64,000 nucleotides of DNA. Source: Halobacteriota archaeon. GTDB taxonomy: Archaea > Halobacteriota > Bog-38 > Methanoflorentales > Methanoflorentaceae. The DNA is taken from positions 8,316-72,315 of the forward strand of contig JBEKER010000004.1 of assembly GCA_050013755.1 (NCBI GenBank), read 5' to 3'. Position numbers and translations under genes: made by a program. Positions 13,267 through 35,613 of this stretch are shown here, piece by piece. Under the pieces are notes generated by a model. The model did not search any database and was not told the origin of the DNA. It worked only from the letters and a program-made list of their open reading frames with translations. The first letter of the stretch is position 1. Every line of letters begins with the position of its first letter.

Positions 13267-14082
13267 TCAGTAGACGAGGAGTAACCCGTATGAGTTTAAG
13301 TTCGTGTGGGTGATCATTCCGTAGACATTCCCCTCGCATGGAATTACCTCTATTGGCAAGTCAAGCTTCCTTACCGTGGCAAACACGTCGACCCCGACTG
13401 CTTCCATTGAGGTTCGAACCCTCTCGGCGTGCCTGCAAGCCCTCTTCAGCGAGAGGTCCACGACGCCCTCTGACTGCTCAGCTACGCACTCGTCGCAGTA
13501 AACACACGGGTACGCCGCAAAGGCTAGGGCTTTGTAATAACCTTGATAGAACGCGTGTTGCTCGAGTTCGTACACCGTGTCGCCGATCCAACTTATCAGC
13601 CCTTTGAGAAACGGATGCCAATCTTCAGGTATACTCTTAGGGTCGATATCTCCCATTCCGGGTATTCCCTTGAAGTGCACGATATACGCTTTTGAATACT
13701 CTTTGAGAAGGTCTCTCGTCTCGGAAGGGCTTGGGACGTATGGGGGACAGCCGAGGTGCTTTGCGAAGCCCTTGCAACCAAACTTACAGCGCCATCTTAC
13801 CCATTCGCTCACCACAATTTCACGCGGGTCAATCTCATAAATTTGAGCGTTGTTTTTCTTAGCTAACGCCTTAAGCTCATTTTCTAACGTTTTATCGTCC
13901 ATATGTATCCCTTTGAAGCTTGTCAAAGAAATTTCGCGATCGTGAGGCCCCACGGTCATACTTTTGATAATATGCGCGCAATCCTTCATTCTCTTTGCTA
14001 TTTCCTCAAATCGTTCCTTTTTGCTATGGTTCTGAGCGATGCGTGAGGTATCTGCCGTGATTGCGATAAGCTGTTCAGACAT
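13267..14082 (-). CDS. DUF2284-like metal-binding protein
   Basis: EWVRWRCKFGCKGFAKHLGCPPYVP matches my recollection of the DUF2284 C..GC......CPP core, plus a CVYCDEC cluster; start uncertain (14082, or 13902 at MDDKTL). Confidence 0.6.
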   Translation of the reverse strand: MSEQLIAITADTSRIAQNHSKKERFEEIAKRMKDCAHIIKSMTVGPHDREISLTSFKGIHMDDKTLENELKALAKKNNAQIYEIDPREIVVSEWVRWRCKFGCKGFAKHLGCPPYVPSPSETRDLLKEYSKAYIVHFKGIPGMGDIDPKSIPEDWHPFLKGLISWIGDTVYELEQHAFYQGYYKALAFAAYPCVYCDECVAEQSEGVVDLSLKRACRHAERVRTSMEAVGVDVFATVRKLDLPIEVIPCEGNVYGMITHTNLNSYGLLLVY

Positions 14083-14270
14083 GGAGCGTTCAAAAAGAAC
14101 CGTCGGCGAATGCAAATTTCAACCGCGCTTGAGAAGATCTTTTATTCTTTGTTCGCCGCCGGCGATTTCCAGTTTTCGGAGGGCCCGCGCCAGTGTATCC
14201 TTGCCAGCAACGTCTGCGGCGTATTGATCGGCCGAATGCTCGTCGTTATACGGGACAAAAGTCAGAGAGC

Positions 14271-14504
14271 TTAACCCGCTAGAGACGATACCAGCTTGCT
14301 CGGGCTGTGCTTGACGTGGTATGCTTCGTGAGCTACCACAGCTGTTACCTCATCTTTATCGAGCCGTTCCAGGAGCCCGACGGACAGATAGGCGGCGCGC
14401 CGATGGGCAAATGCCCGTATTATTTGCGTGTCGATCACCCGTATGGGTATGCCAAACTGCGCCTCGAGCGTTGCGACGTACGACGAAATGCCTGCGTGTT
14501 TCAT
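14271..14504 (-). pseudogene. fragment of an M48/HtpX-type zinc metallopeptidase
   Basis: 77 aa containing ...AFAHRRAAYLSVGLLERLDKDEVTAVVAHEAYHVKH (HExxH) and then a stop; lacks the membrane N-terminus and the C-terminal half. Confidence 0.55.
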
Positions 14505-14606
14505 CTGGCCTGTGCGCGTGAGGCAGTATCGAACGAGGCTGAGCGTGGGTCCATCCTACAAAATAGCCACATGCGAGAGATGGATGGGGAAAGGAATCAT
14601 GAATAG

Positions 14607-15030
14607 TCAATGGGGCCTTCGACTTTGAGGTGACCTGGGACTCGTCCTAGGGCAAAGGTCGGCCCGGATGGCATATCGAGGACACGGCCATCATCGAGAA
14701 CTGCTTCGGAGCGCAATATGATATCCACGGCGGAGCTATGGATCTGCTTCCCTCACCACGAGGCGGAGATCGCCCGGATGGAGGCTGCCTCAGGAAAGAA
14801 GCCGCTGGTGAGATACTGGATGCACACCGGCTTTCTCAATGTCATGAGCGAGAAGATGGCCAAGTCTCTCGGAAACTTCACAACTGTCAGGGATATGCTG
14901 CGAGAATATGAGGCTAACGCCTTCCGATTCTTCGTTCTTCTGGCGCACTACAGAAGTCCCATCGACTTCTCAGAAAGGCTTTAGAGCAAGCTCGCAAGAG
15001 TCTGGAGCGGACACGTCAGGCCGCGAAGAT
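14607..15030 (+). pseudogene. cysS: decayed internal fragment of class-I cysteinyl-tRNA synthetase
   Basis: Reads [42 protein letters not shown], then a frameshift, FPHHEAEIA...[22 protein letters not shown]...[10 protein letters not shown], then a second frameshift, [12 protein letters not shown]-terminal ~200 aa and the C-terminus are absent. Confidence 0.75.
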
Positions 15031-15296
15031 TATCGAGGAGCAATCTCCCGAGCGATATCATCAGAGAACGTGCGGCTCATTGCAGCGTGATATTGTTCGA
15101 TCAGCGGATCGAAATACTCCGGCTTCTGCCGGTCTTTGAAATCAGATTCGTCGAGCGTCGGCTTGAAGTGCATTGCGTATAGGTCCGAGACCTGTACGGT
15201 GTGCCCCGCTTCAGTGAGTGTATCGACAGCTACAGTCCGCATCGTCGCATTAAACGAGTGCGGATTCGGATGTGCGTAGACGATTAGCACATTCAT
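15030..15296 (-). pseudogene. N-terminal fragment of a flavodoxin-fold NAD(P)H:quinone oxidoreductase (NQO1/MdaB-like)
   Basis: MNVLIVYAHPNPHSFNATM...SDLYAMHFKP... is a typical start, but the ORF ends after 88 aa where it abuts the cysS fragment. Confidence 0.55.
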
Positions 15297-15598
15297 CTAT
15301 TATCAACCCCCAGATAACCAGCGTAAGCAAGCGCGACTTAATCGCGCTTTAGTCTTGCATTCAACACATTTGCCATATCTTTACAGGTTTTTGCCAACAC
15401 TCGATTTTTTTTGTCGGAACGAGTCGAGGTCGTGACTGCTGGAGCTTTTTGAGGTTAAGCATTAGGTGTATTATTCGCAGCGCGGGGGCGGTTAGAACGT
15501 GCCAAAATTGTCGCAACAAGCACACTCAAGAGGCTCCACGTCCCATATAGTAATGTCGCACAATGCTATGTTGTCAGAGAAACGAACGGATCTTTCTC

Positions 15599-15715
15599 CT
15601 AGAATCCTCCCAGCAGACAGCAGTAACTACCTGAACCTGCGCATGCTGAGGCTGCATTCCAGCAGCAGCTGTAGCCTCTCGTGCACGTCAGGCAACAACG
15701 TTGTGCATTAGCCAT
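15599..15715 (-). CDS. candidate 38-aa cysteine-rich peptide (unverified small ORF)
   Basis: ATG 15715 to TAG 15599 gives MANAQRCCLTCTRGYSCCWNAASACAGSGSYCCLLGGF (8 Cys, three CC pairs). Divergent from tusA across an AT-rich box (GAAAATATTCC/GGAATATTTTC). No clear SD; below the ORF-track cutoff. Confidence 0.25.
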   Translation of the reverse strand: MANAQRCCLTCTRGYSCCWNAASACAGSGSYCCLLGGF

Positions 15716-15808
15716 TGCGTTTACAAAAGAGATTACCACGATTTCAATGTGGAAGGAATATTTTCTAGTAATACAACGCCCCTAGTAAGTTTCTGGAGAT
15801 GGATGATC

Positions 15809-16048
15809 ATGGCGGATCAGCTACCCGCAAAAAGTCTCGATATGGTTGGATTATACTGTCCTGTCCCGCTGTTTAAAACACGGGAGGGCATCGATAGTAT
15901 CAAAGTTGGTGAAGTGCTTGAGGTGATCGCAGACGATCCAGCTGCAGAGGAAGATATCACGCGGTTTGTGAAGCGGACCGGTCATGAACTGGTGAAATTC
16001 GAGAACAATGAAGGAGTTTTGCGTTTCTTAATCAGGAAAAAAAAGTAG
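15809..16048 (+). CDS. tusA: TusA/SirA-family sulfur carrier
   Basis: LDMVGLYCPVPLFKTREGI (CPxP persulfide cysteine), ~79 aa; SD GGAGA 9 nt upstream of the ATG at 15809. Confidence 0.8.
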   Translation: MADQLPAKSLDMVGLYCPVPLFKTREGIDSIKVGEVLEVIADDPAAEEDITRFVKRTGHELVKFENNEGVLRFLIRKKK

Positions 16049-16061
16049 AGGTGAGATGATT

Positions 16062-16424
16062 ATGACAAATGAAAAGATGTTGCTATACGTGCAGACAAGC
16101 GACAATCCAGAGCGCCAGTATTCCCCACTTGTGCTTGCACAAACGGCGAAGGCAATGGAATTGGAACCTGTGATTTACTTTCTAGGACAAGGATTGCGCA
16201 TTTTACTACCAGGAGCGGCTGAAAAAATAAAGTTGGGGTCATTCCCAAGTGTAAAAGAGATGCTCGATCAGACACTGCAAATGGGCATCACAGTGTACGT
16301 ATGTGAGGCATCGAAGCAGATGCTTGGCTGGGACAAGGTCGAGCTCATCGAGGGTCTAAAAATCGTGGGTGCGGGAACATTAAATGATTTGGTTCTCGAA
16401 GCAAAAGGCACCCTGTGGTTTTAA
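16062..16424 (+). CDS. DsrE/DsrF-like (DrsE_2 type) sulfur-relay protein
   Basis: ~120 aa Rossmann-like pattern LLYVQTS..., conserved Cys in VYVCEAS, C-terminal GAGTLNDLVLEAKGTLWF; SD GAGGTGA 7 nt before the ATG at 16062. Confidence 0.7.
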   Translation: MTNEKMLLYVQTSDNPERQYSPLVLAQTAKAMELEPVIYFLGQGLRILLPGAAEKIKLGSFPSVKEMLDQTLQMGITVYVCEASKQMLGWDKVELIEGLKIVGAGTLNDLVLEAKGTLWF

Positions 16425-16536: not shown

Positions 16537-17703
16537 GTGTACCTCGACTATCAATCTGCTAAGCCGGTTGATCCTGAAGTCATTGCCGCAATGACTCCAT
16601 ATATGGTCGAAAAGTTTGGAAATGCGTCGTCGTTGCACGAGGTGGGTGATTGGTCTACTGAAGCTCTTGATTCGTCACGTAGGATGATCGCACATTTTGT
16701 GAATGCTCGCGAACCAGAGGAAATCATCTTCACGTCTGGTGCGACTGAAGCGAACAACGTTGCGATTATCGGGTATGCGCTGCGGAACAAGCAGAAGGGT
16801 AAACATGTGATTATTAGCGAGGTTGAACACATTTCAATACTCAACATCGCCAAATATCTCAGAAAGAATGGTTTCGAGGTATCGACTGTCCCCGTTGATT
16901 ATACGGGCACCGTGCGTCTCGACAAACTCGAAGAGCGTATTAGACCCGATACGATCTTAATCTCAATCCAGCACGCCAATAACGAGATAGGAACGATTCA
17001 GCCAGTTATGTCGATTGGAAACATCGCCCGTGAAAACAATCTCGTGTTCCATGTCGATGCAGTCGCTTCAGAAGGTCAGATACCAATCGATGTGCAGCGG
17101 GACTTCATAGATATGCTCACCTTATCGTCAAATGACATTTACGGCCCACGGGGTGTTGGTGCCCTCTACGTACGGAAAGGATTTCTTCTCAATCCGCTGA
17201 TCATCGGTGGGGGTCAAGAGCGCGGATTACGTTCAGGAACTGAGGATGTGGCTGCCATTGTCGGTTTCGCGAAGGCAGCAGAACTGGCTTTACAGTATAT
17301 GCCCGAGGAAAGCAAACGGTTGCGGCAGCTGAGAGATAAAGCCATCAAAACGGTATTAGAAACCGTACCACGATCGTATCTCAATGGACATCCGACAAAC
17401 CGACTTCCGAACAACGCCCATTTCCGGTTCGATTTTATCGAAGGAGAATCGATATTACTCTCTTTTAAAGAACGGGGCATCGCCGTTTCAACGGGGTCCG
17501 CGTGTTCGTCACAGACACTCGAGCCGAGTCACACCTTGATGTCACTGGGATTGTTGCACGAGGAGGCACACGGGTCGTTGGAAATCACGATGGGACGATT
17601 CACGAGAGAAGCAGACGTCGACACATTCGTTGAAGCGCTGCCGGGTATCGTGAAACGACTCCGTGACATGTCGCCACTTACAAAGACAGAGGTGGGTATG
17701 TAA
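16537..17703 (+). CDS. iscS: IscS/MisS-like class-I cysteine desulfurase homolog lacking the PLP-binding lysine
   Basis: Full-length NifS/IscS fold (TSGATEANN, HANNEIG, HVDAV, STGSACSS), but the canonical SxHK reads LSSNDIYGPRG (H to N, K to D); GTG start; TAATG overlap with iscU. Confidence 0.85.
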   Translation: MYLDYQSAKPVDPEVIAAMTPYMVEKFGNASSLHEVGDWSTEALDSSRRMIAHFVNAREPEEIIFTSGATEANNVAIIGYALRNKQKGKHVIISEVEHISILNIAKYLRKNGFEVSTVPVDYTGTVRLDKLEERIRPDTILISIQHANNEIGTIQPVMSIGNIARENNLVFHVDAVASEGQIPIDVQRDFIDMLTLSSNDIYGPRGVGALYVRKGFLLNPLIIGGGQERGLRSGTEDVAAIVGFAKAAELALQYMPEESKRLRQLRDKAIKTVLETVPRSYLNGHPTNRLPNNAHFRFDFIEGESILLSFKERGIAVSTGSACSSQTLEPSHTLMSLGLLHEEAHGSLEITMGRFTREADVDTFVEALPGIVKRLRDMSPLTKTEVGM

Positions 17704-18497
17704 TGCCAAAGAGCACACAATATACACTGAAGGTGTTGGATCACTTCAAGAATCCGCGGAATGTCGGCACCCTCGAAGGCAAGGGTGTTGCCGTGGGACG
17801 GGTCGGAAACCCTGTATGCGGGGATTTGATGGACATCTACATCAAAGTCGACGATGACGGCAAGATCGAGGACATCAAGTTTAAGACGTTCGGGTGTGGT
17901 TCAGCAGTCGCAACGAGCAGTATGATTACCGAAATTGCAAAGGGAAAGACCCTCGATGAAGCAATGAAGATAACCCGACAAGATGTGGCTGACGAGCTCG
18001 AAGGGTTGCCCCCTATCAAGATGCACTGCTCCAACCTAGCCGCAGATGCGCTCCACGAGGCGATCAAAAACTTCCGGGAAGGGAAAAAAGGACCTATAGA
18101 GCTCGGTGAAACACGCTTCGCCTGCCCTGCCGGTGAGGTGAAGAACGTCATAGGCCTTGCGGAATTCGTGGGGAAAGGTGTATTCACTGGTTATGAGCAT
18201 CCTGAGCAGTTTCGTGACAAGCGCGTGCTGGTCGTGGAATTTGATCAAAACAGCGTTGAATTTGCGCTCGAATTAACGAAGGTAACAGGTCGGGTGATTT
18301 TATTGTCACCCTTGGAACAGCTCGCGGTGAATGATGAATTAAAGACTCAGGTAAAACGATCCGATATTAAACATTTGAAACAGGCAGAGCTTGTGGAAGT
18401 ATCCGGGGGTTCAGAGGTGGAAAAGGTGCGGATCCACGACCTTGACGAGGATGAAGAATATGACTTGGTTGTGGACGCCGTTGTGGTCCCTTCGTGA
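17703..18497 (+). CDS. iscU: IscU scaffold fused to a degenerate thioredoxin-reductase NADPH-domain-like module
   Basis: N-terminal 130 aa has NPVCGD, FGCGSAVATSS and MHCSNLA. The C-terminal ~130 aa follows the TrxR NADPH-domain pattern with the CxxC and GGGNSA motifs replaced (GYEHPEQF, VVEFDQNSVEFALEL). Confidence 0.85.
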   Translation: MPKSTQYTLKVLDHFKNPRNVGTLEGKGVAVGRVGNPVCGDLMDIYIKVDDDGKIEDIKFKTFGCGSAVATSSMITEIAKGKTLDEAMKITRQDVADELEGLPPIKMHCSNLAADALHEAIKNFREGKKGPIELGETRFACPAGEVKNVIGLAEFVGKGVFTGYEHPEQFRDKRVLVVEFDQNSVEFALELTKVTGRVILLSPLEQLAVNDELKTQVKRSDIKHLKQAELVEVSGGSEVEKVRIHDLDEDEEYDLVVDAVVVPS

Positions 18498-19049: not shown

Positions 19050-20126
19050 CTAGACGTCCCGGTGCGGTACAAGATCGCAGCCAGTACACGGCGCGCACAT
19101 CGTTTGCGCTACGTCAGCCCGCAACTCGTGTTTGTCTAGCAGTTCGCGTTCCTTTCGCGCTAATCGCAAGAGTCGTTCTGCGTCCGGTCGTCGCATGCCT
19201 GTTTGCGAGCGCAAGGGATGCTCGACAACTGCTCTGAGGATGGGGATCACGCCTATTCCAGTAAGTTCTTCCATGCCGTTGATGATCGTGTCGTCATCCT
19301 CTCCCAACCCGACGAGGATATTGGAAAAGACTTTGTTTCGGCCGAAGACCTCTACAGCGTCCTTGAGGGCTTCCATAATGAATTCAAGTGAAAGCTCTGG
19401 ACACATCGTCTTGAAGAGCAGACGATCCATCGTCTCCACGTTGTACTTTAGCTCGTCGGCTCCAGCGTCCTTCAATAGCTTTGTGGAGTTCTCGGTAGGA
19501 TAGACGGACACGCCGATGGGGAGATCGTACTTCGCCCTTAAGGCGCGAACGATAGCTGCGATTCTTTCAACTTCGCGCTCTGGTGACTCTTCGACACCGG
19601 AAGTCAACGCTATGGCTCTTAATTTATGAGCGAGCTTTGGATCGGCGAGAATTCTTGCTATCGCCGTTTCAACATCGCTCTGGTCTTTTACCGAACCTCC
19701 CAAAAGTGGCACCGGGCAGTACTGGCAGTCGAATATACACACCTCGCTTACCGTGATATACGCTTGTTCAGGGCAATGGGCAATGGCATCCTCAAGATAC
19801 CCGCGGACGATCTCTTTTTCGTGGTCGCGAATGACCACTTCATCTCCTTCAAGCGATGCCTTGAGACGGGAGCTGTGTTTTATTCCCAGGCGCACCCGGT
19901 GACCGTTAAATCGAAAGAAAAAAGACGTGAGTCCGGCACCAGGCCCGGACGCAGGAGTCGTAATGCGCCCAAGTATGCCCTCATCAATGTCCACGCTTCC
20001 CTCTGCAATAAGGAAAGCTTTCGTCTCCGCACTCTTATCCATCGTTTGTGCCCTCATTTGTGCCTTTGACCAGCCGCCCGCTGCAATGACGCGCGCAAGT
20101 TGTCCCCGTTTAATTGCCTTATTCAT
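19050..20126 (-). CDS. radical SAM enzyme (BioB/LipA-like core) with ~110-aa N-terminal domain and C-terminal CxxCxxC
   Basis: CIFDCQYC (Cx3Cx2C), NILVGLGEDDDT (BioB-like GxGE), C-terminal MCAPCTGCD; N-terminal TTPASGPGAGLTSFFFRFNGHRVRL domain not recognised. Confidence 0.8.
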   Translation of the reverse strand: MNKAIKRGQLARVIAAGGWSKAQMRAQTMDKSAETKAFLIAEGSVDIDEGILGRITTPASGPGAGLTSFFFRFNGHRVRLGIKHSSRLKASLEGDEVVIRDHEKEIVRGYLEDAIAHCPEQAYITVSEVCIFDCQYCPVPLLGGSVKDQSDVETAIARILADPKLAHKLRAIALTSGVEESPEREVERIAAIVRALRAKYDLPIGVSVYPTENSTKLLKDAGADELKYNVETMDRLLFKTMCPELSLEFIMEALKDAVEVFGRNKVFSNILVGLGEDDDTIINGMEELTGIGVIPILRAVVEHPLRSQTGMRRPDAERLLRLARKERELLDKHELRADVAQTMCAPCTGCDLVPHRDV

Positions 20127-20354: not shown

Positions 20355-21218
20355 ATGTCAATCCGACTCACCAAAGAAACAGCGGGAAACTGCGCCCTTC
20401 AAGATATTGAACTTGAAAGGATCGTAGCATACATGCGCTCGCATGGCAGTGCAGTGATAGCCTTTTCAGGCGGAGCTGATAGCTCGGTCGTTGCTGCGCT
20501 TGCCAAACGGGCTTTCGGAGATGCAACAGTGGCCGTAACGATAGACAACGGTGCGCTTCATCACGGCGAGGTCGAGCACGCGGCTGCGATCGCCAACGAG
20601 ATCGGCATTCGCCACATTGTGATCACCCTCGATCCGTTGACTGTATTCGAAGTGAAGCAGAACGATCCTGAACGATGTTACTTCTGCAAGAAGTTGGTCT
20701 TTGGCGCGCTGCGCGACCTAGCTGAGGACCTACACTTCACTGCGGTCATGGACGGCACAAATGCGTCTGATCTTAATGGCTACAGACCCGGCCTGAAAGC
20801 TCTGCGAGAACTCGGCGTCGTGTCGCCGTTGCTCGATCTCACCAAAGATGAAGTGAGAAGCCTTGCGCGCAGACTCGGCTTATCGAACGCTGACGCGCCG
20901 TCCGTCGCTTGTCTCCTCACCTCATTTCCTTACGGCACGATTATGACGGGCGAGAGAATTGAAAGGCTTAGAGACGCTGAACGTGCGTTAAAGACGATTG
21001 GCATCACGCAAGTGAAAATCAGAGATCACGATCACTTCGCTCGCATTGAAGTGGACAGGGAAGAGGCCGGCAAGGTCCTCACGCATTCGTCTACTATAAC
21101 CAATAAGCTCTTGGAGCTTGGGTTTACCTACGTTACTTTGGATCTCCAGTGGCTGCGGTCAGGCAGCATGGACATTGCGCTGTGTTCCGGAAGAAAAAAG
21201 TCAGCAAATGACCGTTGA
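20355..21218 (+). CDS. LarE-like PP-loop ATP pyrophosphatase / sulfur transferase (three-cysteine type)
   Basis: SGGADSS PP-loop, NDPERCYFCKK, GTNASDLNGYRPG, SPLLDLTKDEVR, PSVACLLTSFPYG, ARIEV: the order matches my recollection of the TIGR00268/LarE family. Confidence 0.8.
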   Translation: MSIRLTKETAGNCALQDIELERIVAYMRSHGSAVIAFSGGADSSVVAALAKRAFGDATVAVTIDNGALHHGEVEHAAAIANEIGIRHIVITLDPLTVFEVKQNDPERCYFCKKLVFGALRDLAEDLHFTAVMDGTNASDLNGYRPGLKALRELGVVSPLLDLTKDEVRSLARRLGLSNADAPSVACLLTSFPYGTIMTGERIERLRDAERALKTIGITQVKIRDHDHFARIEVDREEAGKVLTHSSTITNKLLELGFTYVTLDLQWLRSGSMDIALCSGRKKSANDR

Positions 21219-21247: not shown

Positions 21248-21862
21248 TTACAAAATCCGTATGTCCTCTAATCGGACGTGAATACCAGCTCGTTTCTTTA
21301 GTACCATGTTAACAACTGCGGTATGCGAGAGATTGAGCATGCAGTATCCAGGCAAGAAGCGTTGTCTCTTCCCAATAACCGGTGCGTGGTGAATGACCTC
21401 CGCAATACCCTCGAACGCGTGCACGTTATAGGCTTGAACGTCGTGTGACTTTTCTTTTCGAGCAGCAAGCGGGCCCAGCGTATGGCACTCGAGAACTCCT
21501 GTTATGGGATTTGCGGAGAGAACGCGGAGAGCGTGATACAACGGACATCCTGGACCGGCGGGACGACCAGTCACGAGGTCTCCTGCTGTAATGTTCCAGC
21601 GCTCCACCAAATCGGCGCGAAACGGAACGATGAATTTGCGCGCCGAGGGCTCGCCCGGCAAAGGGCGGAGCACGAAATCGTACTCATTCCCTAGCACGTC
21701 AGTCCCAGAGTAGCTTGGAGCTTCCCTTCGCACGCCCGCATCTATTTCGTAGTAAGGACAATCTTTGTACGATTTTTCTCCCGCGCGCACGTGCAAAAGA
21801 AATTGCTCGCACGTGGCCGTTCCGCAGGCTCCACAGTCTTTTCCGGCCGGCACCCAGGCCAC
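21248..21862 (-). CDS. Fe-S protein with N-terminal PF04060-type 4Fe-4S motif and unknown C-terminal domain
   Basis: DCGACGTATCEQF-(x)-DCP = Cx2Cx4Cx16C, as in the RnfB and CFeSP N-termini; remaining ~160 aa unrecognised; 2-nt gap from the upstream GTPase gene. Confidence 0.7.
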   Translation of the reverse strand: MAWVPAGKDCGACGTATCEQFLLHVRAGEKSYKDCPYYEIDAGVRREAPSYSGTDVLGNEYDFVLRPLPGEPSARKFIVPFRADLVERWNITAGDLVTGRPAGPGCPLYHALRVLSANPITGVLECHTLGPLAARKEKSHDVQAYNVHAFEGIAEVIHHAPVIGKRQRFLPGYCMLNLSHTAVVNMVLKKRAGIHVRLEDIRIL

Positions 21863-21864
21863 GC

Positions 21865-22572
21865 TTAGTCACCCCGATAAATATTATCGGCCTCCTCGAG
21901 CGGCCGTATCACGCCAAAATGGTGCTGCCATCCGATTTCCTTCTTCCCGACGCAGATGGTACAGACTCCAAGCGGAGGTGACCCGCGTAGGACGATTTGC
22001 GCGGCGTCGCTAAGATCAGGATATGCTGCGAGCGCTTTCATCAGATACCGCATACCCGTGCCCTGTGTCGCATTGGTTTCAATAATGTCGATTGAGAGGG
22101 CGACCTCCTTAATGTATTCGCGAAAAACTTCCTTCTCGGCCTGCGAAACGAGGTCAGTCTTCGTGACAACGGCCATGTCGGCCTGAGCAATCATCGGCGC
22201 CATTTTCAAAGGTGAGTTGCTTCCCGAGACTGCTGAAAGAACAGCGATACCGAATGACTGGGTCGTGTAGGGGGTGCATCGAAGACAGAGACCAGCGCTC
22301 TCGATGATGAGAAGGCCCGATCCTAAGTTCTGCGCCCACGAAATAGCGTCTTGGAGCACCATAATGCCCGCGTGATCCGGGCACAGGTCACCGGAGTACA
22401 CCTTGCGCGTCGGAATCCCAAATTCTTCTCTGAGCTCCTCGTCTTCAAACGCGCGAACGACGTCGATTTTCACATAAGCCGGATTGCTGCTCTCGCGAAA
22501 TTCACGGATGATCTGCCGAACGACCGCAGTCTTCCCGACGCTGGCGGGTCCCGCGATTATGGCGAGTTTCAC
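21865..22572 (-). CDS. G3E-family (UreG/HypB-like) metallochaperone GTPase with CxxC tail
   Basis: Walker A GPASVGKT, metal motif LCPDH (compare the UreG CPH motif), ExxG IIESAG, NKxD-like TKTD; C-terminal extension with CTIC. Confidence 0.8.
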   Translation of the reverse strand: MKLAIIAGPASVGKTAVVRQIIREFRESSNPAYVKIDVVRAFEDEELREEFGIPTRKVYSGDLCPDHAGIMVLQDAISWAQNLGSGLLIIESAGLCLRCTPYTTQSFGIAVLSAVSGSNSPLKMAPMIAQADMAVVTKTDLVSQAEKEVFREYIKEVALSIDIIETNATQGTGMRYLMKALAAYPDLSDAAQIVLRGSPPLGVCTICVGKKEIGWQHHFGVIRPLEEADNIYRGD

Positions 22573-23375
22573 GCCAGTACCCCTATCTCCTCGTCTATTG
22601 CGTCTTCTTCACCGATTAAATCTCCAGATCTGATTCTCTCGCGGAGGTCCCAGAGCAGATCATCGATCTCAGAAACACGTGCAATCGTCGCCCTCTCTCG
22701 TTCGCGAGGTTCAAGCACTTTGACTACAGCTCCATTGCTCATCACAATCCGCCGGTCCGTGCTCAGGGCGAGATAGGGATCGTGCGTCACGAAGATGACC
22801 GTTTTCCTGCACTCCTTTATGCACGAAATGACGCGTTCCTTGAAGATACCCGCGTTTTCCACTTCATCGAGGAGTAAGATCGGGGTCCTTCCGATGAGAA
22901 TCGCATCCGCGATCAGAAGCGCACGCGTCTGCCCCCCTGACAGGGCGGTCATGCGCATGGCCCCGGTAATCTGCTCTCCTGTGAACTCATTTGCTAGCCC
23001 AATCGTATTTTCAACGAGGTCTTTGATGTGCGTTTGCTTGCGCGCTTCGATGTGTAGCTCCAGAAAACGTGACACGTCCAGATCTGCAATCACACGCGTG
23101 CTCTGCGTAATAAGTGCAATCGGTTTTTTCGACGGATCTCGAGCCATCTCATCAGAAGGAGGAACGCCATTTACGAGAATACACCGGCCCGTAACCGTAT
23201 CAGCCTGCGCCAGCACTTCGATATCATTTATGAATGCCGATTTTCCAGACCCGGTTGGCCCCACGATCGAGAGGGTATCCCCAGGGCGGATGACTATTTG
23301 GTCAAACCCTTCTCTTTTGCCATTGCGGTTGGTTCCCGGGAGGACGGTAATTTCACTCATCTGATCACGGTGCAT
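22569..23375 (-). CDS. soluble ABC-type ATPase without a cognate permease
   Basis: GPTGSGKS, LSGGQ, ILLLDE, VTHD; acidic C-terminal tail; ATGA overlap with the GTPase gene; no membrane subunit gene nearby. Confidence 0.85.
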   Translation of the reverse strand: MHRDQMSEITVLPGTNRNGKREGFDQIVIRPGDTLSIVGPTGSGKSAFINDIEVLAQADTVTGRCILVNGVPPSDEMARDPSKKPIALITQSTRVIADLDVSRFLELHIEARKQTHIKDLVENTIGLANEFTGEQITGAMRMTALSGGQTRALLIADAILIGRTPILLLDEVENAGIFKERVISCIKECRKTVIFVTHDPYLALSTDRRIVMSNGAVVKVLEPRERERATIARVSEIDDLLWDLRERIRSGDLIGEEDAIDEEIGVLA

Positions 23376-23966
23376 ACATAACTCTTCATCTGGTGCCTAC
23401 AAATAAGTTTCGAAAGAGACAAAAAGTTATCCTCTAAGTAATAGAAATAATTATGATTTAACCTATTAAGGGAAAAAAGTAAGCAGAACGGATATGCGAA
23501 ACTAGGTTCGAAGCCAGTTTTAAGGCATTAGGAAGAAGGAATATGCTAGGCAGGACTAAGAATCACAGGAATTCGAGTATCCGCTTCCAGATAATCGGCA
23601 TGCGCGACCAGAAGGCGGTCGGCGGAAGAAAATCTGTTTGCTCTCACTCGCTTAGACGAGGTAGTTTCGCTCACTATTATTATGCATCAGGTGCCATTGA
23701 TTCGCGTGGGTTCACAAGCGTTTTCCACGGAAACTAGAGTGAGATCTGTTGTTTCTAAAATGCCGAAAGCGGACGATGCGCTATTCAAAGCACCGACGAG
23801 CCCTTTTTTCGTAAATCAGCTCGGGATAACTTGGTCTCGTTGCTCATGCTGCGATTTGATATCCAATGCTCTTCTTATGACTCGACGTCACAATTTCGTA
23901 ATTGTTCCGCTGATTTCCAATTCATTGTGACCAAAGGCGTAAATGTGAGCATGCACGTCTTAGAAA

Positions 23967-24953
23967 ATGCGATTAAGCAAGCGGAGGCGGATTTTGATAA
24001 AGGAAGATAATCATCTCGTACTCAGAATCGGGCATCTTCCCACTTTGTACCATACTTCGTTCCTCCTTATGGGTACAGCCCTGCTGAAGAATAATGACGT
24101 TGAGGCCGAGTGGACACTTTTCCCATCGGGCCCCGATCTTGTGAATGCCATGCGCGATGGACACCTCGACATCGGCTACGTCGGGCTTCCACCCGCTATC
24201 ATTGGCGTTGACAAAGGTACTAGGCTTATATGCATCGCTGGAGGGCACATTGAAGGAACTTTGATGGTCGGGGGAGAAGGTGTGAGAACGGTTGATCAGT
24301 GCAGGAGCATGCCAGCGTTTCTCAGCCAGTTTTCGGGGACAGCCATAGGCTGTCCACCACGGGGCTCGATTCACGATGTTATTGTCAACGAATTGCTGAA
24401 AGAGTATCATATCGAGGATGTCCATGTGAACAATTATGCTTGGGCGGATTTTCTTCCCGATGCGCTCGTGGAAGCTGAAATAGCAGCGGCTGCAGGCACG
24501 CCTGCCCTCGCCGTAGCAGCTCGGAGGTACTATGGGGCACACACGATAATGCCCCCCGCACGATTATGGCCCTTTAACCCAAGCTACGGAATTGTGGCAA
24601 TGAGAGACGATTTGGCTCGTCACGCGGATGTTCTCCGGAGGTTTCTCGTCGCTCACGAGATTGCGTGTGAGATGATTAGGCATCACCCGGGCAAATGCGC
24701 GCGCATCGTTGCTCGAACGACAGGGGTGGTGGATGCAGCTTTTGTGGCGGAAGCGTATCAGATCTCTCCAAAGTATTGCGCTTCTTTGCCTCCGGAATAC
24801 GTTTCATCGACGATGAAGTTCGTGAACGCGCTTGAAGCGTTCGGGTACATCTCGAGGCGAATGAGTGAGAGGGAGATTTTCGACGTATCGCTTATTAATG
24901 AGGTGCATACGGCGCCGCCACACTACGAGTGTGGGCTACAAGAGGCTTTGTAG
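23967..24953 (+). CDS. NMT1/THI5/SsuA-like periplasmic-binding-fold protein lacking a signal peptide
   Basis: LRIGHLPTLYHTSFLL..., PSGPDLVNAMRDGHLDIGYVGLPPAI is typical of the NMT1/SsuA fold; the N-terminus MRLSKRRRILIKEDNH has no hydrophobic h-region or lipobox. Confidence 0.6.
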   Translation: MRLSKRRRILIKEDNHLVLRIGHLPTLYHTSFLLMGTALLKNNDVEAEWTLFPSGPDLVNAMRDGHLDIGYVGLPPAIIGVDKGTRLICIAGGHIEGTLMVGGEGVRTVDQCRSMPAFLSQFSGTAIGCPPRGSIHDVIVNELLKEYHIEDVHVNNYAWADFLPDALVEAEIAAAAGTPALAVAARRYYGAHTIMPPARLWPFNPSYGIVAMRDDLARHADVLRRFLVAHEIACEMIRHHPGKCARIVARTTGVVDAAFVAEAYQISPKYCASLPPEYVSSTMKFVNALEAFGYISRRMSEREIFDVSLINEVHTAPPHYECGLQEAL

Positions 24954-25020: not shown

Positions 25021-26097
25021 TTACCTGGCTACGTATCGAGCGTAAATGCTCTTGGCAGCTTCTGGATCGCGCGTACCCTTGATTATTGCGCGGCCGTCAC
25101 GGAAAAGGGTCATCTCGAAGTCGGTATGCGGGTCTTTGAACAGCAGAGTGTACTCGTTATGCTTAACCCGCCCGATCCGGTCGAGACTGCCGGCAAGCTC
25201 CGCTAATTTGATGGTGGCTTCTCGGGCTGGGGTAATCTGAACGGCATCGCGACCACAGAGTGTTGTGATCTTATCGCCCTTTTTGGCGTCCAAGAACTCA
25301 AATTGCGACTCGACACAGCATCGGCAGGAGGGATCCTTTACAACGTTCATTTTTTGCAGGGTTTGCTCCCAGACGTCATATATGATAAGTTTTGTATCGG
25401 TCGCCTGTTTGCCCAACAAGATCCTAATAGCTTCCGTGGTGGCAATTGATGCGATGATGGGGGGTATAGTATTGAGCACCCCGGCCAGATCGCACGTTTG
25501 GAGAACTCCTTGGGGCGGAATGTTTGGGATGAAACATCGTAGGCAAGGGGTTGCGCGAGGGATAATCGGCATCACCATCCCGTGAGTTCCAACCGCCCCG
25601 CAGTATACCCACGGGATTTCGTGCTTGGTGCAGACATCATTCACCAAAAAGCGCGTCTCCATATTGTCGGTGCCATCGACGATCAGATCCGAATGTCCGA
25701 GGATGTCTTCCGCATTGTTGAAGTTGAGATCCTTAATGATGTCGTGGACGACAATGTCTGAGTTTGCGTGTCTCACCTTCTCAGAAGCCACGAGCGCTTT
25801 AGGCAAGTCGAGGTCTCGCTCGTCAAACAAGACCTGTCGCTGGAGGTTCGTCAGCTCTACGAAGTCCCTGTCGATGACGGTCAGCTCACCGACGCCTGTC
25901 CGCGCCAATAAGTTAAGGACTATCGAGCCAGTGGCTCCGCATCCCACTACCGAAACGCTGCTGTTCTGCAGTGCGGACTGGCCCTCAGTCCCGATCTCGG
26001 GGAGAATCAGTTGTCTTGAATAGCGCGCATACTCGTGCCTGGTACTCACTACGGAGAAGTTAGCGTTGACGAGCTTATGGCAATCGTTAGGTGCCAT
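25021..26097 (-). CDS. long-form ThiF/MoeB-family E1-like adenylyltransferase
   Basis: RYSRQLILPEIG, VVGCGATGS, Zn cysteines PCLRC and CRCC, C-terminal LCGRDAVQI...TLFRDGRAIIKGT extension as in Bacillus ThiF/MoeB; start chosen at ATG 26097 (ORF open to 26289). Confidence 0.85.
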   Translation of the reverse strand: MAPNDCHKLVNANFSVVSTRHEYARYSRQLILPEIGTEGQSALQNSSVSVVGCGATGSIVLNLLARTGVGELTVIDRDFVELTNLQRQVLFDERDLDLPKALVASEKVRHANSDIVVHDIIKDLNFNNAEDILGHSDLIVDGTDNMETRFLVNDVCTKHEIPWVYCGAVGTHGMVMPIIPRATPCLRCFIPNIPPQGVLQTCDLAGVLNTIPPIIASIATTEAIRILLGKQATDTKLIIYDVWEQTLQKMNVVKDPSCRCCVESQFEFLDAKKGDKITTLCGRDAVQITPAREATIKLAELAGSLDRIGRVKHNEYTLLFKDPHTDFEMTLFRDGRAIIKGTRDPEAAKSIYARYVAR

Positions 26098-26328
26098 TTT
26101 TGCCCCAACCGCAAGGATTAAGTCCAATACTTTGCTGCGCGAGCTAGGTCGAGGTTGGTTAGAAATGCCTTGCCTGAGCGGCGTGGTCTGGTAGCCATGC
26201 ATCGAACCGTAATCATGGGCTTGCGAAGCTACGTTCTTTATTGCAAGAGGTGAGACCTTTGCAAGCGTGGTGCAGAGCCTTCTGTTCAACCCGTCTGCGC
26301 TCTCATTCTCTGTGCGACTGAATGCGGT

Positions 26329-26682: not shown

Positions 26683-27516
26683 TTATGACCTCAATAGCAT
26701 TAGCGACGCCAAAATGACTAATACCACAGCAAAGCTCGCAGTTAGCGCTTCGTTTCGAATCTTGCCCTGCAGACGCGGCCCGATCAGGGCCCCCAAAAAG
26801 ACCGCTTCAAGCACAATTGCGGCGAGCAGTGGCTGCACGAACCCGTTTGCATAGTAGATAATCGCACCGACTGCGGTCGTCAGCCCGATAATTAGTGCGC
26901 TTGTGCCGGTCGCTGCCTTGATAGGAACTCGCATGCCGAGCGTCATAACTGGTACGTTTATGATTCCCCCTCCAATGCCTAACAGTCCTGATGCGTTGCC
27001 CGCTACGAATCCGCTTAGCAGCCCTAAGAGCGGGTTTCTTACCTGATAGCTTACTAGTCGCTCACCCGTGGCGTTAGTATAGCTCCCGCCCAATTGGAAT
27101 CGATCGTACTGCGCGTCACGTAGTCTGGTAGATTGCACAGCGCCGACTTCCTTGCGTCGCAGAAACATAACGACAGCCGTCGCGACGAGGGCCGCAGCGA
27201 AGACCTCAGTAAGCAGTGTCCGGTTTATCTGCGCTGCTATTTGGGCCCCGATGATCGCCCCGGCGGTCGCGGTGATGGCAAACCACAGAGCAAGCCGTAG
27301 ATTTAACCTGCAATCTTTGACGTACGTCATCGACGCGGCGCTGGAGTTGGCTATCGTGCTGACAAGGCTTGTGGCAATTGCAATCTGTATCGGGATGCCT
27401 GCCGCGAGTGTTAGAAACGGAACCAAAAGAACTCCCTCTCCAATGCCAAGCATCGAGGTGATCACTCCGACGAACACAGAAACGAAGAAAATTATGAGCA
27501 GGCTTAGTGGATCCAT
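26683..27516 (-). CDS. TauE/SafE (DUF81) family anion (sulfite/sulfonate-type) exporter
   Basis: 277 aa, ~8 TM segments, duplicated GIGGG/GIGEG motifs (MLGIGEGVLLVP, LLGIGGGIINVP). Confidence 0.85.
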   Translation of the reverse strand: MDPLSLLIIFFVSVFVGVITSMLGIGEGVLLVPFLTLAAGIPIQIAIATSLVSTIANSSAASMTYVKDCRLNLRLALWFAITATAGAIIGAQIAAQINRTLLTEVFAAALVATAVVMFLRRKEVGAVQSTRLRDAQYDRFQLGGSYTNATGERLVSYQVRNPLLGLLSGFVAGNASGLLGIGGGIINVPVMTLGMRVPIKAATGTSALIIGLTTAVGAIIYYANGFVQPLLAAIVLEAVFLGALIGPRLQGKIRNEALTASFAVVLVILASLMLLRS

Positions 27517-29752: not shown

Positions 29753-30931
29753 CTATTCGGGCTTTCCATAGCCCTCATCCCTGTACGCATAGAGGGGCGA
29801 CATCTGTCGCAGCTGATCAACGATTTCTGGGAGGACGTCGTTTACGTATTGAACATCTGCTTCCGTCGTCTCTCTCCCTAGGGTAAGCCTCAGACTGCCG
29901 TGAGCATCAACGGGGTCCAGGCCGATCGCCAGCAGCACGTGTGATGGTTCAAGTTTCTTTGACGAGCAGGCGGAACCAGTCGATCCAGCAATCCCCTTTG
30001 CGTTCAAGCGGAGCACAAGCGACTCCCCCTCGATATAGCTGAAGCTGAAATTGGTGTTGTTCGGAAGACGGCGCTCCTTTCCACCGTTGAGTCGAGTGTA
30101 AGGGATTTCTCGCAGTACGGCGTCGATTAGCTCATCCCTGAGCCTTTGTATGCGCACATTGTCTGCGAAATCTTCGATCGCCAGACGCATTGCCTCACTA
30201 AAGCCAACAATACCCGGCACGTTCTCGGTGCCGCTTCTGAGGCCGCGCTCGTGGCCGCCGCCGAAAATGAGCGGTTTTAATTTGGTGCCCTTCCGAATGT
30301 ACAGGCATCCGACCCCTTTCGGTCCGTATATCTTGTGTGATGAAATAGAGAGCATGTCCACATTGAGAGCGGCCACGTCCACTGGAATCTTCCCGACGCT
30401 CTGGACTGCATCGGTGTGCATGTAGACGCCGTGCGACGCTGCGATCGCTCCGACCTCAGCTATGGGCTGTATTGAGCCGATCTCGTTGTTAGCGTGCATG
30501 ATTGATATGAGTCGCGTGTTGTCCCGAATCGCCTCTTCCACTTCGCTAGGATTTATCCGGCCGTCAACATCAACAGAAACGTAAGTTACCTCGTGTCCAA
30601 GCTTTTCAAGAAACTTGCACGTCTCGAGGACCGCGGGATGTTCGATCGCGGAGGTGATGATATGATCGCTCTCGCCACTGCCATCGCGTAGTACTCCACG
30701 CAAAGCCATATTGTCCGATTCAGTTCCGCCTGACGTAAAAACGATCTCTGGCGGGGTCGCTCCAATCGAGTGCGCTATCTGTTCTCGCGCGTCCTCGATC
30801 GCCTTGCGTGCCTCAAGTCCATAGGTGTGGAGGCTCGAGGGGTTTCCGAAGCGCTCTAAAAAGTACGTGCGCATCACGTCGAGGATCTCAGGGCGCATCG
30901 GCGTGGTCGCGGCGTGATCAAGATAAATCAT
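29753..30931 (-). CDS. class-I cysteine desulfurase (NifS/IscS type, canonical)
   Basis: MIYLDHAATTP, TSGGTESDN, HANNEIG, SISSHKIYGPKG (PLP Lys present), STGSACSS. Confidence 0.9.
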   Translation of the reverse strand: MIYLDHAATTPMRPEILDVMRTYFLERFGNPSSLHTYGLEARKAIEDAREQIAHSIGATPPEIVFTSGGTESDNMALRGVLRDGSGESDHIITSAIEHPAVLETCKFLEKLGHEVTYVSVDVDGRINPSEVEEAIRDNTRLISIMHANNEIGSIQPIAEVGAIAASHGVYMHTDAVQSVGKIPVDVAALNVDMLSISSHKIYGPKGVGCLYIRKGTKLKPLIFGGGHERGLRSGTENVPGIVGFSEAMRLAIEDFADNVRIQRLRDELIDAVLREIPYTRLNGGKERRLPNNTNFSFSYIEGESLVLRLNAKGIAGSTGSACSSKKLEPSHVLLAIGLDPVDAHGSLRLTLGRETTEADVQYVNDVLPEIVDQLRQMSPLYAYRDEGYGKPE

Positions 30932-35202: not shown

Positions 35203-35223
35203 GCGGAGGACAAGGAGGCATCC

Positions 35224-35613
35224 GTGAAGATCGTGTTGAAGTTTTCACAGAAGATTATGCAGGATCCGCTGCTTGCAGATGTCGTGCTCGAGACGGGCGT
35301 CCGCCTCAACATCGATCGGGCATTTGTTGACGCCTCTATCGGGGAAATCGTAATCGACGTGCCCGACGAACGCGTTGAAGAGGTTGCGGCAGCCTTCCGG
35401 AGACGTGGGACTGAGGTGCGCGAGATGGACACGCCAATCGTATTCGATGAAGCTGAGTGCGTGCAGTGTGGCGCGTGCGTGTCAGTCTGTCCTGTTGAGG
35501 TATTTGAGTACAAGGACGACAGGACGATTTCGATCAACCTCAAGCGGTGCGTGCTCTGCAAGACCTGTATTGCGATGTGTCCGCACGGCGCTCTGAAAAC
35601 TGCAGAGGAATGA
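35224..35613 (+). CDS. NIL domain + 2x[4Fe-4S] ferredoxin (MA1822-like)
   Basis: N-terminal NIL-like ~75 aa, then CVQCGACVSVCP and CVLCKTCIAMCP; GTG start after AGGAGG. Confidence 0.85.
   Translation: MKIVLKFSQKIMQDPLLADVVLETGVRLNIDRAFVDASIGEIVIDVPDERVEEVAAAFRRRGTEVREMDTPIVFDEAECVQCGACVSVCPVEVFEYKDDRTISINLKRCVLCKTCIAMCPHGALKTAEE

Follow-up and report, generated by a model that had tools for sequence, protein, structure and literature searches.

Neither biological methane formation nor anaerobic alkane oxidation can proceed without coenzyme M (CoM; 2-mercaptoethanesulfonate). Chadwick, Williams, Shalvarjian and Nayak (PLoS Genet 2025, legend to Fig. 2B) have pointed out that genes for an "ATPase, Ni-binding GTPase, COG2000 Fe-S protein" are colocalized with CoM genes, and gave their function as "role unknown". 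Here we analyze a 64,000-nt stretch of DNA from a Halobacteriota archaeon (GenBank assembly GCA_050013755.1, contig JBEKER010000004.1, positions 8,316 to 72,315 of the forward strand), referred to as the window, that carries an orphan soluble ATP-binding cassette (ABC) ATPase gene, a G3E GTPase gene and a COG2000-type Fe-S protein (FeS) gene, referred to together as the trio. With a probability of roughly 0.65, we consider the trio to be this archaeon's copy of a module that functionally belongs to CoM biosynthesis.

Two soluble ABC ATPases provide points of comparison for such a module. SufC is the soluble ABC ATPase of Fe-S cluster assembly, and component A2 of the MCR activation complex has two nucleotide-binding domains and has McrC and Mmp proteins as its partners. 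A2 has been described as a methanogen-specific soluble ABC-type ATPase that acts with Fe-S proteins in an ATP-dependent metalloenzyme step (Ramirez-Amador et al., Nature 2025, PMC12176620). As for the CoM pathway itself, Chadwick et al. (2025) describe MMP16 as the main CoM synthase, which has its own ferredoxin domain and is dispensable when sulfide is present, such that "backup pathways" are invoked; they give the thiolation step as taking 2-4 electrons (legend to Fig. 1) and ComDE as the one enzyme common to both archaeal CoM pathways. The source of sulfite for CoM biosynthesis was called unclear by Yu et al. (2018).

The window trio and the trio of Chadwick et al. (2025) comprise the same three families in the same order, and the colocalization with genes for MMP16, cysteate synthase (CS), ComDE and ComA is reproduced here. 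Where that paper deals with the trio it assigns no function, presents no protein analysis and mentions neither the bacterial copies nor the dedicated regulators described below; moreover, in contrast to the loci depicted there, the window trio adjoins genes for an SsuA-fold protein, ThiF, TauE, LarE and a radical SAM enzyme rather than CoM genes. A full-text literature search for COG2000 returned no other relevant paper, and searches around the sulfite source, capnine and CoM-linked GTPases or ATPases returned no paper that assigns the trio a function. A first-pass annotation of this DNA, made from the sequence alone, had not recognized the trio as any named system; the trio is indeed unnamed, and its function has not been defined by experiment as far as the account of Chadwick et al. 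goes, but it had already been flagged in print. The trio is a real, uncharacterized system of known superfamilies plus one unclassified domain that has been noticed by specialists, in the legend cited above without explanation of its role, and it is not a new discovery. (Note that the strongly induced "GTP-binding protein" MA4556 of M. acetivorans, listed in the S4 table of Chadwick et al., was considered as a trio gene and rejected, as its neighbours are RuBisCO and a cobalamin protein.)

Organization of the trio in the window

The trio genes lie on the minus strand, and a fourth gene is divergent from them across a spacer:

21248..21862, minus strand: COG2000-type FeS protein, 204 aa (PF04060, 34 bits against a cut-off of 23)
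21865..22572, minus strand: G3E GTPase, UreG/HypB-like, of a separate subfamily, 235 aa (PF02492, 45.7 against 20.7)
22569..23375, minus strand: orphan soluble ABC-type ATPase with one nucleotide-binding domain, 268 aa (PF00005, 48 against 25)
23376..23966: divergent intergenic spacer, 591 bp, GC 0.43
23967..24953, plus strand: cytoplasmic SsuA/NMT1-fold protein, 328 aa (PF13379 NMT1_2, 39.1 against 24.7)

Family calls were made with Pfam gathering scores and curated NCBIfam cut-offs. All four open reading frames (ORFs) claimed by the first-pass annotation are intact at these coordinates, and in the Pfam search that it had proposed ABC_tran, cobW, the FeS domain and NMT1_2 all scored above gathering; no trio protein reaches the cut-off of any named NCBIfam subfamily. 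The motifs it had listed are likewise present in the translations, namely GPTGSGKS, LSGGQ, ILLLDE, VTHD and an acidic tail in the ATPase, GPASVGKT, LCPDH, ESAG, TKTD and CTIC in the GTPase, and C10-x2-C13-x4-C18-x16-C35 at the N-terminus of the FeS protein. The reported overlap between the ABC and GTPase genes is real and 4 nt long, but its sequence is GTGA (a GTG start over a TGA stop) and not ATGA, and the GTPase stop is separated from the FeS start by 2 nt, as had been reported. The spacer, described previously as AT-rich and about 590 bp long, measures 591 bp and has a GC content of 0.43 compared to about 0.50-0.53 in the surrounding 2-kb segments; it gave no Rfam match at E up to 1 and no remnant of a helix-turn-helix (HTH) regulator by tblastn. 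Metagenome-assembled genomes (MAGs) from peat bogs labelled "Halobacteriota / Methanomicrobia archaeon" hold the nearest relatives of the locus, with protein identities of 95-96%.

The trio is conserved in archaea and in anaerobic Bacteroidales

Trio loci were gathered from genomes (69), metagenomes (80, found with a narrow alignment) and annotated contexts (11); L numbers below denote individual loci. Gene order was counted in the 126 loci having upstream sequence and context in the 95 having both flanks. The sample is redundant in phylogeny, with many Methanoregula and Methanobacteriaceae, and Methanococcales were not sampled. The FeS protein has 408 close relatives, the best 120 of which are all at least 68% identical and come from Methanoregula, Methanospirillum, Methanomicrobium and Methanolobus, whilst a search with distant FeS members yielded 1663 relatives in Methanobacterium, Methanothrix and anaerobic Bacteroidales (Mangrovibacterium, Maribellus, Draconibacterium); one more family member came from ANME-1. 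The range of the trio comprises Methanomicrobiales, Methanosarcinales, Methanotrichales, Methanobacteriales, ANME-1 and anaerobic Bacteroidales.

The order ABC-GTPase-FeS on one strand was found in 120 of the 126 loci by strict geometry and in about 125 of them by inspection. With gene content and order alike in about 125 of 126 loci, the shared arrangement is far beyond chance; it is invariant across five archaeal orders and some Bacteroidales, and the check on conservation elsewhere that the first-pass annotation had named came out strongly in favor of the trio. Moreover, divergence between the two main clades has gone in step for all three proteins, with identities of about 42-46% for the ATPase, 38-40% for the GTPase and about 26-32% for the FeS protein.

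In the Bacteroidales (Mangrovibacterium and MAGs; L074, L076, L077, L078, L146, L147) the trio stands alone, always preceded by the genes of a two-component pair (HisKA_3 kinase, GerE response regulator), which shows that the three proteins suffice for a function. Two of the copies in Mangrovibacterium lie among conjugative-transposon or relaxase genes, and this location suggests horizontal spread. The trio is an autonomous three-protein module that has probably been inherited both vertically and horizontally.

The trio is built into CoM operons in most methanogens

In methanogens the trio is part of the CoM operon in at least four orders, in the following arrangements:

Methanobacteriales (about 45 loci): ComA-ABC-GTPase-FeS, ComA overlapping the ABC start
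Methanothrix-type loci: CS-ABC-GTPase-FeS-ComD-ComE, with MMP16 on the opposite strand
Methanosarcina: radical SAM-ABC-GTPase-FeS-MMP16 (MMP16 TIGR03287, 499 bits against 364)
Methanolobus: MMP16 overlapping the FeS stop
Methanoregula (every locus reaching far enough downstream): the trio, 3 nt, CS (618 bits against 325), then a fused thiamine pyrophosphate (TPP) decarboxylase, that is, ComDE
Methanosphaerula and a related MAG: trio-MMP16-CS-ComDE, the whole type-2 pathway

The neighbours score above curated NCBIfam cut-offs (CS, TIGR03844, 437-618 bits against 325; MMP16, TIGR03287, 492-521 bits against 364; ComA, TIGR03849, 324-336 bits against 280), and start/stop overlaps were seen for ComA/ABC, CS/ABC and FeS/MMP16. 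The fused decarboxylase belongs to the type comprising phosphonopyruvate and sulfopyruvate decarboxylases and also follows CS in L042 and L053. ComA, CS or MMP16 was immediately adjacent to the trio in 74 of the 95 loci with both flanks, a fraction that overstates the number of independent events because of the redundancy of the sample; the real evidence is the occurrence of different arrangements in at least five lineages, each with a different CoM gene.

A gene for a conserved XRE-type HTH regulator (162-171 aa, with an uncharacterized C-terminal domain) fills the interval between the NMT1-like and ABC genes in all Methanoregula loci (e.g. L003:7899-8387(-)); L053 and L079 (6576-7091) have orthologs of it, and it also adjoins the trio in Methanosphaerula and Methanothrix. 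The window lineage has the GC-poor spacer instead. The presence of dedicated regulators, XRE-type in archaea and HisKA_3/GerE in bacteria, argues for a self-contained function of the trio. In most methanogens, the trio is co-inherited and predicted to be co-transcribed with CoM genes, together with regulators of its own. The generic metallocentre pathway that the first-pass annotation had envisaged as the setting of the trio gives way to the ComA, CS, ComDE and MMP16 operons, which constitute the decisive context.

In the S1 table of Chadwick et al. (2025), mmp16 is scored 0 in all 15 Methanoregula genomes among the rows listed; four of these 15 (M. boonei and three others) have CS and ComDE, and about half of the listed Methanoregula also lack CS and ComDE. 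Going by these rows, the genus may hold both MMP16-independent CoM producers and CoM auxotrophs.

Several points weigh against assigning the trio to CoM biosynthesis. The redundancy of the locus sample has been mentioned; furthermore, gene clustering is evidence of association with a pathway and not of mechanism, and no trio protein resembles a sulfite-forming enzyme. In the 64 kb of the window there is no ComA-E, CS or MMP16 gene, such that the link of this trio to CoM is by homology only, and the window holds only an L-ASST homocysteine enzyme, about 10 kb from the trio; in the window lineage the trio is detached from CoM genes. Finally, no CoM gene is adjacent to the trio in the Bacteroidales loci, and we know of no Bacteroidales that make CoM. 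The bacterial copies weaken any model that is tied strictly to CoM.

(In the Methanobacteriales, L075 and L080 to about L130, ComA and the trio are always followed by a CofE-like PF01996 "F420 ligase" paralog, and a gene for a 187-aa protein with only a pyruvate-kinase C-terminal-like domain is always divergent upstream. To our knowledge, neither protein has a role in CoM synthesis.)

The COG2000 protein combines a corrinoid Fe-S protein-type domain with an unclassified domain

The COG2000 protein has two parts: at the N-terminus a [4Fe-4S] domain like that of the corrinoid iron-sulfur protein (CFeSP) and RnfB, and then a C-domain of about 150 aa, predicted with confidence to be all-beta, with conserved Cys, His and Arg residues. 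The likeness to CFeSP and RnfB lies in the Cx2Cx4Cx16C motif and in a PF04060 match above the gathering score, but it extends only over the first 40 or so residues, which are also the only part with a sequence match in the PDB (residues 12-52 of the CFeSP large subunit, 4djd_C). In a set of 15 diverse members of the family, every one has a PF04060 match and the four cluster cysteines are invariant. The AlphaFold2 (AF2) model (pLDDT 83.6, pTM 0.78) found no neighbour in the PDB by Foldseek, the best match having an E-value of 0.2 and TM scores being at most 0.21, and a Pfam search of the 15 members at E up to 5 found no family for the C-domain. The first-pass annotation had been unable to place the region after the FeS motif, and it does lack both a Pfam family and a PDB fold neighbour.

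Residues kept in most or all of the 15 members are the four cluster cysteines together with R75, R100, R197, C106, H110, C174 and H180. Those of the C-domain can be read as a predicted metal site beside an anion-binding pocket, possibly wired to the [4Fe-4S] cluster. (Note that longer members of the family, P0123, P0128, P0140, P0210 and P0146, carry no informative extra domain; only a sub-threshold dockerin match was found, in P0140.)

The GTPase belongs to a distinct G3E subfamily

The GTPase has the attributes of the G3E superfamily, with a PF02492 score well above cut-off, a P-loop, an ExxG motif and a TKxD-type motif, and its only sequence relatives in the PDB are UreG and HypB (best UreG 5xkt, 4hi0). 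It nonetheless scores below the equivalog cut-offs for HypB (TIGR00073, 59.2 against 121.2) and UreG (TIGR00101, 27.1 against 204.2). Across eight archaeal and bacterial copies GPASVGKT, ESAG and TKTD are invariant or conservatively varied (the last as TK(T/G)D), and invariant features are the P-loop, C64-P-D-H67, E91xAGLC96xRC99xP, C204TxC207 and H218. On these grounds, the GTPase represents a distinct, new subfamily of G3E proteins.

Like HypB (with HypA) and UreG (with UreEFD), the GTPase is predicted to have the P-loop G3E fold, with ExxG and NKxD-like motifs and Cys-Pro-(Asp)-His at the position of the metal motif; at the level of sequence, C64-P-D-H67 and C96/C99 are invariant at positions matching the dimer-interface metal ligands of UreG (CPH) and HypB (CH plus Cys). 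It differs in having extra invariant CxRC and CTxC...H motifs and in its partners, which are an ABC ATPase and a COG2000 protein instead of HypA or UreE/F/D, and no hydrogenase or urease genes lie near the trio. Because the CPDH metal motif and further invariant Cys and His residues are kept, a role for the GTPase as a metallochaperone element is plausible. This much of the metallocentre reading proposed in the first-pass annotation stands, but that reading missed the CoM context and a generic metallocentre pathway is not supported.

According to the reading just mentioned, a client would receive a metal or cluster from a generic machine of GTPase and ATPase, possibly along with a ligand held by the NMT1-fold protein, and the link to CoM would be incidental or limited to the maturation of MMP16. 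The G3E fold, the CPDH motif and the extra invariant Cys and His residues fit this idea, as do the precedent of SufC and the position of the gene for MMP16, an Fe-S "metalloprotein", directly downstream of the trio in Methanosarcina. However, the immediate neighbour varies by lineage between ComA, CS and MMP16, which points to association with a pathway and not to one client, and we know of no need of ComA or CS for special metal centres. In addition, most trio loci have no NMT1-fold protein, the solitary bacterial trio with its regulator pair suggests that the COG2000 protein is itself the end product or effector, and the trio is still joined to CS-ComDE in Methanoregula, which lacks MMP16 among the rows listed in the S1 table of Chadwick et al. 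(2025). We therefore regard a generic metallocentre machine as unlikely.

The ABC ATPase is soluble and has no cognate permease

The Walker A, Q-loop, LSGGQ, Walker B and H-loop (THD) motifs of the ATPase are invariant across archaeal and bacterial copies, and its C-terminal tail is helical and acidic. Directly after Walker B, in the segment that in ABC proteins is normally the D-loop, it has the residues ENAGI. Its best NCBIfam match, at about 52 bits, is below cut-off, its best PDB sequence match scores 58.6 bits, none of its 138 NCBIfam matches comes near the respective cut-off and SufC is not among the best 25 of them; methanogenesis-marker families in NCBIfam were not matched by any trio protein.

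As in the SufBC2D system, a permease-less ABC ATPase comes together with a putative scaffold or effector that is rich in Cys, amid genes for sulfur and Fe-S handling, but the trio lacks SufB/SufD homologs (none of the annotated loci has such a gene beside it) and has the GTPase as an obligate third partner. The likeness to component A2 is that of a soluble methanogen ABC-type ATPase paired with an Fe-S protein (PMC12176620), whereas the trio ATPase has a single nucleotide-binding domain and its context is CoM biosynthesis, not mcr.

The comparison with A2 raises the idea of an activase, by analogy, in which ATP hydrolysis by the ABC protein would drive low-potential electrons from the COG2000 cluster either to the ComF thiolation (by MMP16, another COG1900 enzyme or an alternative) or to the reactivation of ComDE. 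ComDE of M. jannaschii is reportedly inactivated by oxygen and reactivated by dithionite (Graupner et al. 2000). The CFeSP-type N-terminal domain of the COG2000 protein would suit such a device, for which MCR activation provides the precedent of a soluble ABC ATPase (PMC12176620); the thiolation step takes electrons, and ComDE, common to both pathways, is encoded in the same operons (Chadwick et al. 2025). However, an activase would leave unexplained both the G3E metallochaperone and the Cys2His2/Arg-rich domain, MMP16 already has a ferredoxin domain according to the same authors, and the bacterial trio has neither MMP16 nor ComDE adjacent. We consider it improbable that the trio works in this way.

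An SsuA-fold protein adjoins the trio in a few lineages

The divergent gene in the window encodes a protein whose scores for TIGR01728 (SsuA_fam, 69.2 against 163.5) and PF09084 (THI5/NMT1 HMP-P synthase, 17.2 against 20.5) are both below cut-off. Its AF2 model (pLDDT 85.6) gave as top Foldseek matches 3un6, E. coli SsuA 2x26 (TM 0.74/0.79), Xanthomonas SsuA, TauA, Thi5 and the CmpBCD regulatory domain (9uak), with TM scores of 0.68-0.80 to the E. coli and Xanthomonas SsuA structures, of 0.72-0.80 in the comparison with SsuA and 3un6 and of about 0.65 to Thi5. Consistent with the first-pass annotation, the protein lacks a signal peptide: the ORF cannot be extended upstream, and the orthologs of about 313 aa have no hydrophobic N-terminus, with no signal peptide found in any of 35. 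Invariant His and Cys residues of the orthologs (YHT29, C89xAGGH94, GSxHD137 with H136, SPKYC271, H314 and H319) are more numerous than a plain binding protein would require. The model predicts the type II binding-protein fold of SsuA and TauA, from which the protein differs in having neither signal peptide nor permease, in its many invariant His and Cys residues and in scoring below the family cut-off. The regulatory domain of the CmpBCD bicarbonate transporter sets a precedent for a cytoplasmic binding fold beside an ABC ATPase, although the NMT1-like protein is a separate polypeptide and not fused to the ATPase.

An NMT1-like gene lies beside the trio only in the window lineage and in the following genera of the Methanomicrobiales:

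Methanoregula: divergent, behind the 162-aa XRE-type regulator
Methanospirillum: downstream of the trio, then ThiF and ThiS
Methanomicrobium: divergent from the trio, then ThiF and ThiS

Some Methanoregula loci have the order regulator-NMT1-ThiS-TauE-NifS-ThiF, of which the window shares NMT1, ThiF, TauE and NifS and lacks ThiS, the regulator and a CoM gene. Loci of Methanosarcina, Methanothrix, Methanobacteriales and bacteria lack the gene, and the protein is thus not the general ligand holder that the first-pass annotation had tentatively suggested.

The binding fold next to an ABC ATPase raises the possibility that the locus is a remnant, or an unconventional form, of a sulfonate / oxyanion transporter, in which an Ssu/Tau-type importer has lost its permease or now works with TauE. 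SsuA is among the best structural matches, TauE-family permeases recur nearby and canonical SsuA-type transporters with their own permease and ATPase occur near the trio in some loci (e.g. L072). Nevertheless, no NMT1-like ortholog has a signal peptide or lipobox, most trio loci have no binding protein, and the ATPase, which exceeds the cut-off of no importer subfamily, is always coupled to the GTPase and FeS protein and not to the binding protein. In the window no ABC permease gene lies beside the trio, as the first-pass annotation had stated, such that the ATPase is not part of a complete transporter; in 82 of the 95 loci there is no ORF with at least four predicted transmembrane segments within 2 kb (the exceptions are mixed, e.g. 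TauE), and no BPD_transp or ABC2 permease was found beside the trio in the Pfam-annotated contexts. The prospect raised in the first-pass annotation, that homologous loci might include a cognate permease, is thus not borne out. Accordingly, a transporter remnant is barely conceivable, and the comparative loci effectively refute an importer origin of the trio; the order kept across loci and the lack of a cognate permease agree with the earlier description of a soluble machine driven by ATP and GTP, and the trio is a conserved module and not an importer minus its permease.

By analogy with CmpBCD, the cytoplasmic SsuA-fold protein might instead act as a sensor of CoM or a sulfonate that adjusts the ATPase, in which case the trio would serve signalling or feedback in CoM homeostasis and not catalysis. 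The structural match to the CmpBCD regulatory domain and the dedicated transcription factors that adjoin the trio speak for this idea, but sensing would hardly call for two NTPases and a redox metalloprotein, most trio loci are without the NMT1-fold protein and the many invariant His and Cys residues look catalytic or metal-binding, unlike those of a simple binding site. Such a sensing device is very unlikely.

Genes for sulfur handling surround the trio

The first-pass annotation had placed the trio in a sulfur/Fe-S neighbourhood, and the genes around it are almost all sulfur-handling:

15701-16048, plus strand: TusA-like protein
16056-16424, plus strand: DsrE-like protein (TIGR04044 weak, below cut-off)
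16537-17703, plus strand: NifS
17703-18497, plus strand: NifU fusion (NifU_N domain and a thioredoxin-reductase-like half)
19050..20126, minus strand: radical SAM protein (PF04055, 51.4 bits; CxxxCxxC and a C-terminal CxxCxxC)
20355..21218, plus strand: LarE-type PP-loop ATP-dependent sulfur transferase (TIGR00268, 268.3 against 150), convergent with the FeS gene
25021..26289, minus strand: ThiF/MoeB-type E1-like adenylyltransferase with a C-terminal extension (PF00899, 246.6 bits; PRK12475, 307.6)
26683..27516, minus strand: TauE/SafE-family anion permease (sulfite / sulfonate exporter family; PF01925, 164 bits)
29753-30931: second NifS
33709-35610: L-ASST-like pair, HcyBio (COG1900) with two CBS domains followed by a NIL/ferredoxin protein

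Several of these genes recur near the trio elsewhere. Orthologs of the radical SAM protein, scoring about 300-410 bits, directly precede the trio in Methanosarcina and occur within 1-5 kb of it in Methanospirillum; the protein itself has weak, sub-threshold matches to the MSMEG_0568 (TIGR04043), LipS2, BioB and LipA families and no sequence match in the PDB. LarE-like genes lie 2-8 kb from the trio in Methanosarcinaceae, Methanoregula and Methanobacteriales loci. A large-type ThiF is found near NMT1 in four Methanoregula loci (L010, L019, L021, L041), and a small ThiF with ThiS in Methanospirillum and Methanomicrobium; no ThiS gene was found in the window, where the true start of ThiF is probably downstream of the listed TTG. 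TauE, dismissed in the first-pass annotation as unrelated, has to be reconsidered, as TauE-family ORFs recur beside the cluster in several genera, namely in the same four Methanoregula loci and, directly upstream of ABC, in Methanospirillum (L022, L025). These ORFs score low against the window TauE and therefore represent different subfamilies; a link between TauE and the trio is possible but unproven.

The TusA, DsrE, NifS and NifU genes form one plus-strand block, and the fusion of NifU_N to a thioredoxin-reductase-like half is an unusual architecture. TIGR04043 and TIGR04044 are families of the uncharacterized MSMEG_0568 / MSMEG_0572 (Sll0783) gene cluster. The L-ASST-like pair is a homocysteine enzyme of the MA1821/MA1822 type, which has been proposed as a backup for MMP16 in M. 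acetivorans.

Elsewhere in the window, a DUF2284-like protein (13267-14115) has its best matches in selenoprotein families (ArsM/DUF2284 selenoprotein, MbdU). The region 14100-15600 seems to hold gene remnants; an 88-aa ORF (14718-14984, plus strand) with the class-I aminoacyl-tRNA synthetase motif KMAKSLGN looks like a fragment of cysteinyl-tRNA synthetase, and 15030-15296 (minus strand) is occupied by a truncated ORF for a flavodoxin-like NAD(P)H dehydrogenase. Two paralogous ADH synthase genes of the archaeal dehydroquinate (DHQ) pathway (41379-42176 and 57141-57929) are 15 kb apart, and the region 37.4-43.1 kb holds the remaining genes for aromatic amino-acid synthesis (DHQ synthase II, AroD, AroE, prephenate dehydrogenase and prephenate dehydratase).

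The trio may bring inorganic sulfur into the CoM pathway

For the trio as a CoM module, we envisage the following mechanism. The effector would be the COG2000 protein, as a small metalloprotein of redox function that has a Cys2His2 site and a [4Fe-4S] cluster of CFeSP type and low potential; three invariant arginines next to the Cys2His2 site suggest an anionic ligand, either sulfite or a sulfonate. Loading or gating of the metal site of the COG2000 protein would fall to the UreG/HypB-like GTPase, which has the CPDH motif and additional CxxC pairs. The ATPase would dimerize as ABC nucleotide-binding domains do and provide an ATP-driven conformational or electron-gating step, for which SufC and component A2 (PMC12176620) might serve as precedents. 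In the version that we favour, the module would feed inorganic sulfur into the CoM pathway.

The step at which it would do so can be stated only tentatively. The trio may make sulfite, or hand it over, to CS or ComA, a possibility that we favour because these two non-homologous sulfite-using enzymes are its commonest neighbours and are translationally coupled to it, because the trio survives without MMP16, and because TauE and an oxyanion-binding fold recur nearby; even so, we hold this proposal with low confidence. It is also conceivable, though rather doubtful, that the trio supplies activated sulfur and/or low-potential electrons to the thiolation of sulfoacetaldehyde, by MMP16/ComF or by an MMP16-independent route. 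That it matures or reductively reactivates an enzyme of the pathway (MMP16 or ComDE) seems to us unlikely, and it may also have some other role altogether. The neighbours of the trio in the window lineage (the SsuA-fold protein, ThiF, TauE, LarE, radical SAM protein and NifS/U) are consistent with a sulfur-handling role.

The literature describes Bacteroidetes as making cysteate by cysteate synthase for sulfonolipids, and sulfonate biosynthesis may for this reason be the common denominator of the archaeal and bacterial trios. Extending this idea, the trio might be the inorganic-sulfur entry system of sulfonate biosynthesis in strict anaerobes, with sulfite made or handed over in protected form to CS or ComA, and in MMP16-less lineages such as Methanoregula the SsuA-fold protein might, with ThiS, ThiF and NifS, constitute an MMP16-independent CoM synthase. 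The two parts of this proposal taken together are speculative, and we doubt that both hold. If true, an entry of sulfur through the trio would also explain its presence in anaerobic Bacteroidales, which belong to a phylum with cysteate-derived sulfonolipids.

The trio brings with it a domain without a known fold relative and a new subfamily of G3E GTPases. It bears on two questions in CoM biosynthesis, namely the source of sulfite for ComA and CS in sulfidic, sulfite-free cells, and the delivery of sulfur and electrons in the final thiolation. Its place within the CoM operon in at least four methanogen orders and its survival in a genus without MMP16 make the trio the obvious candidate for one of these roles.

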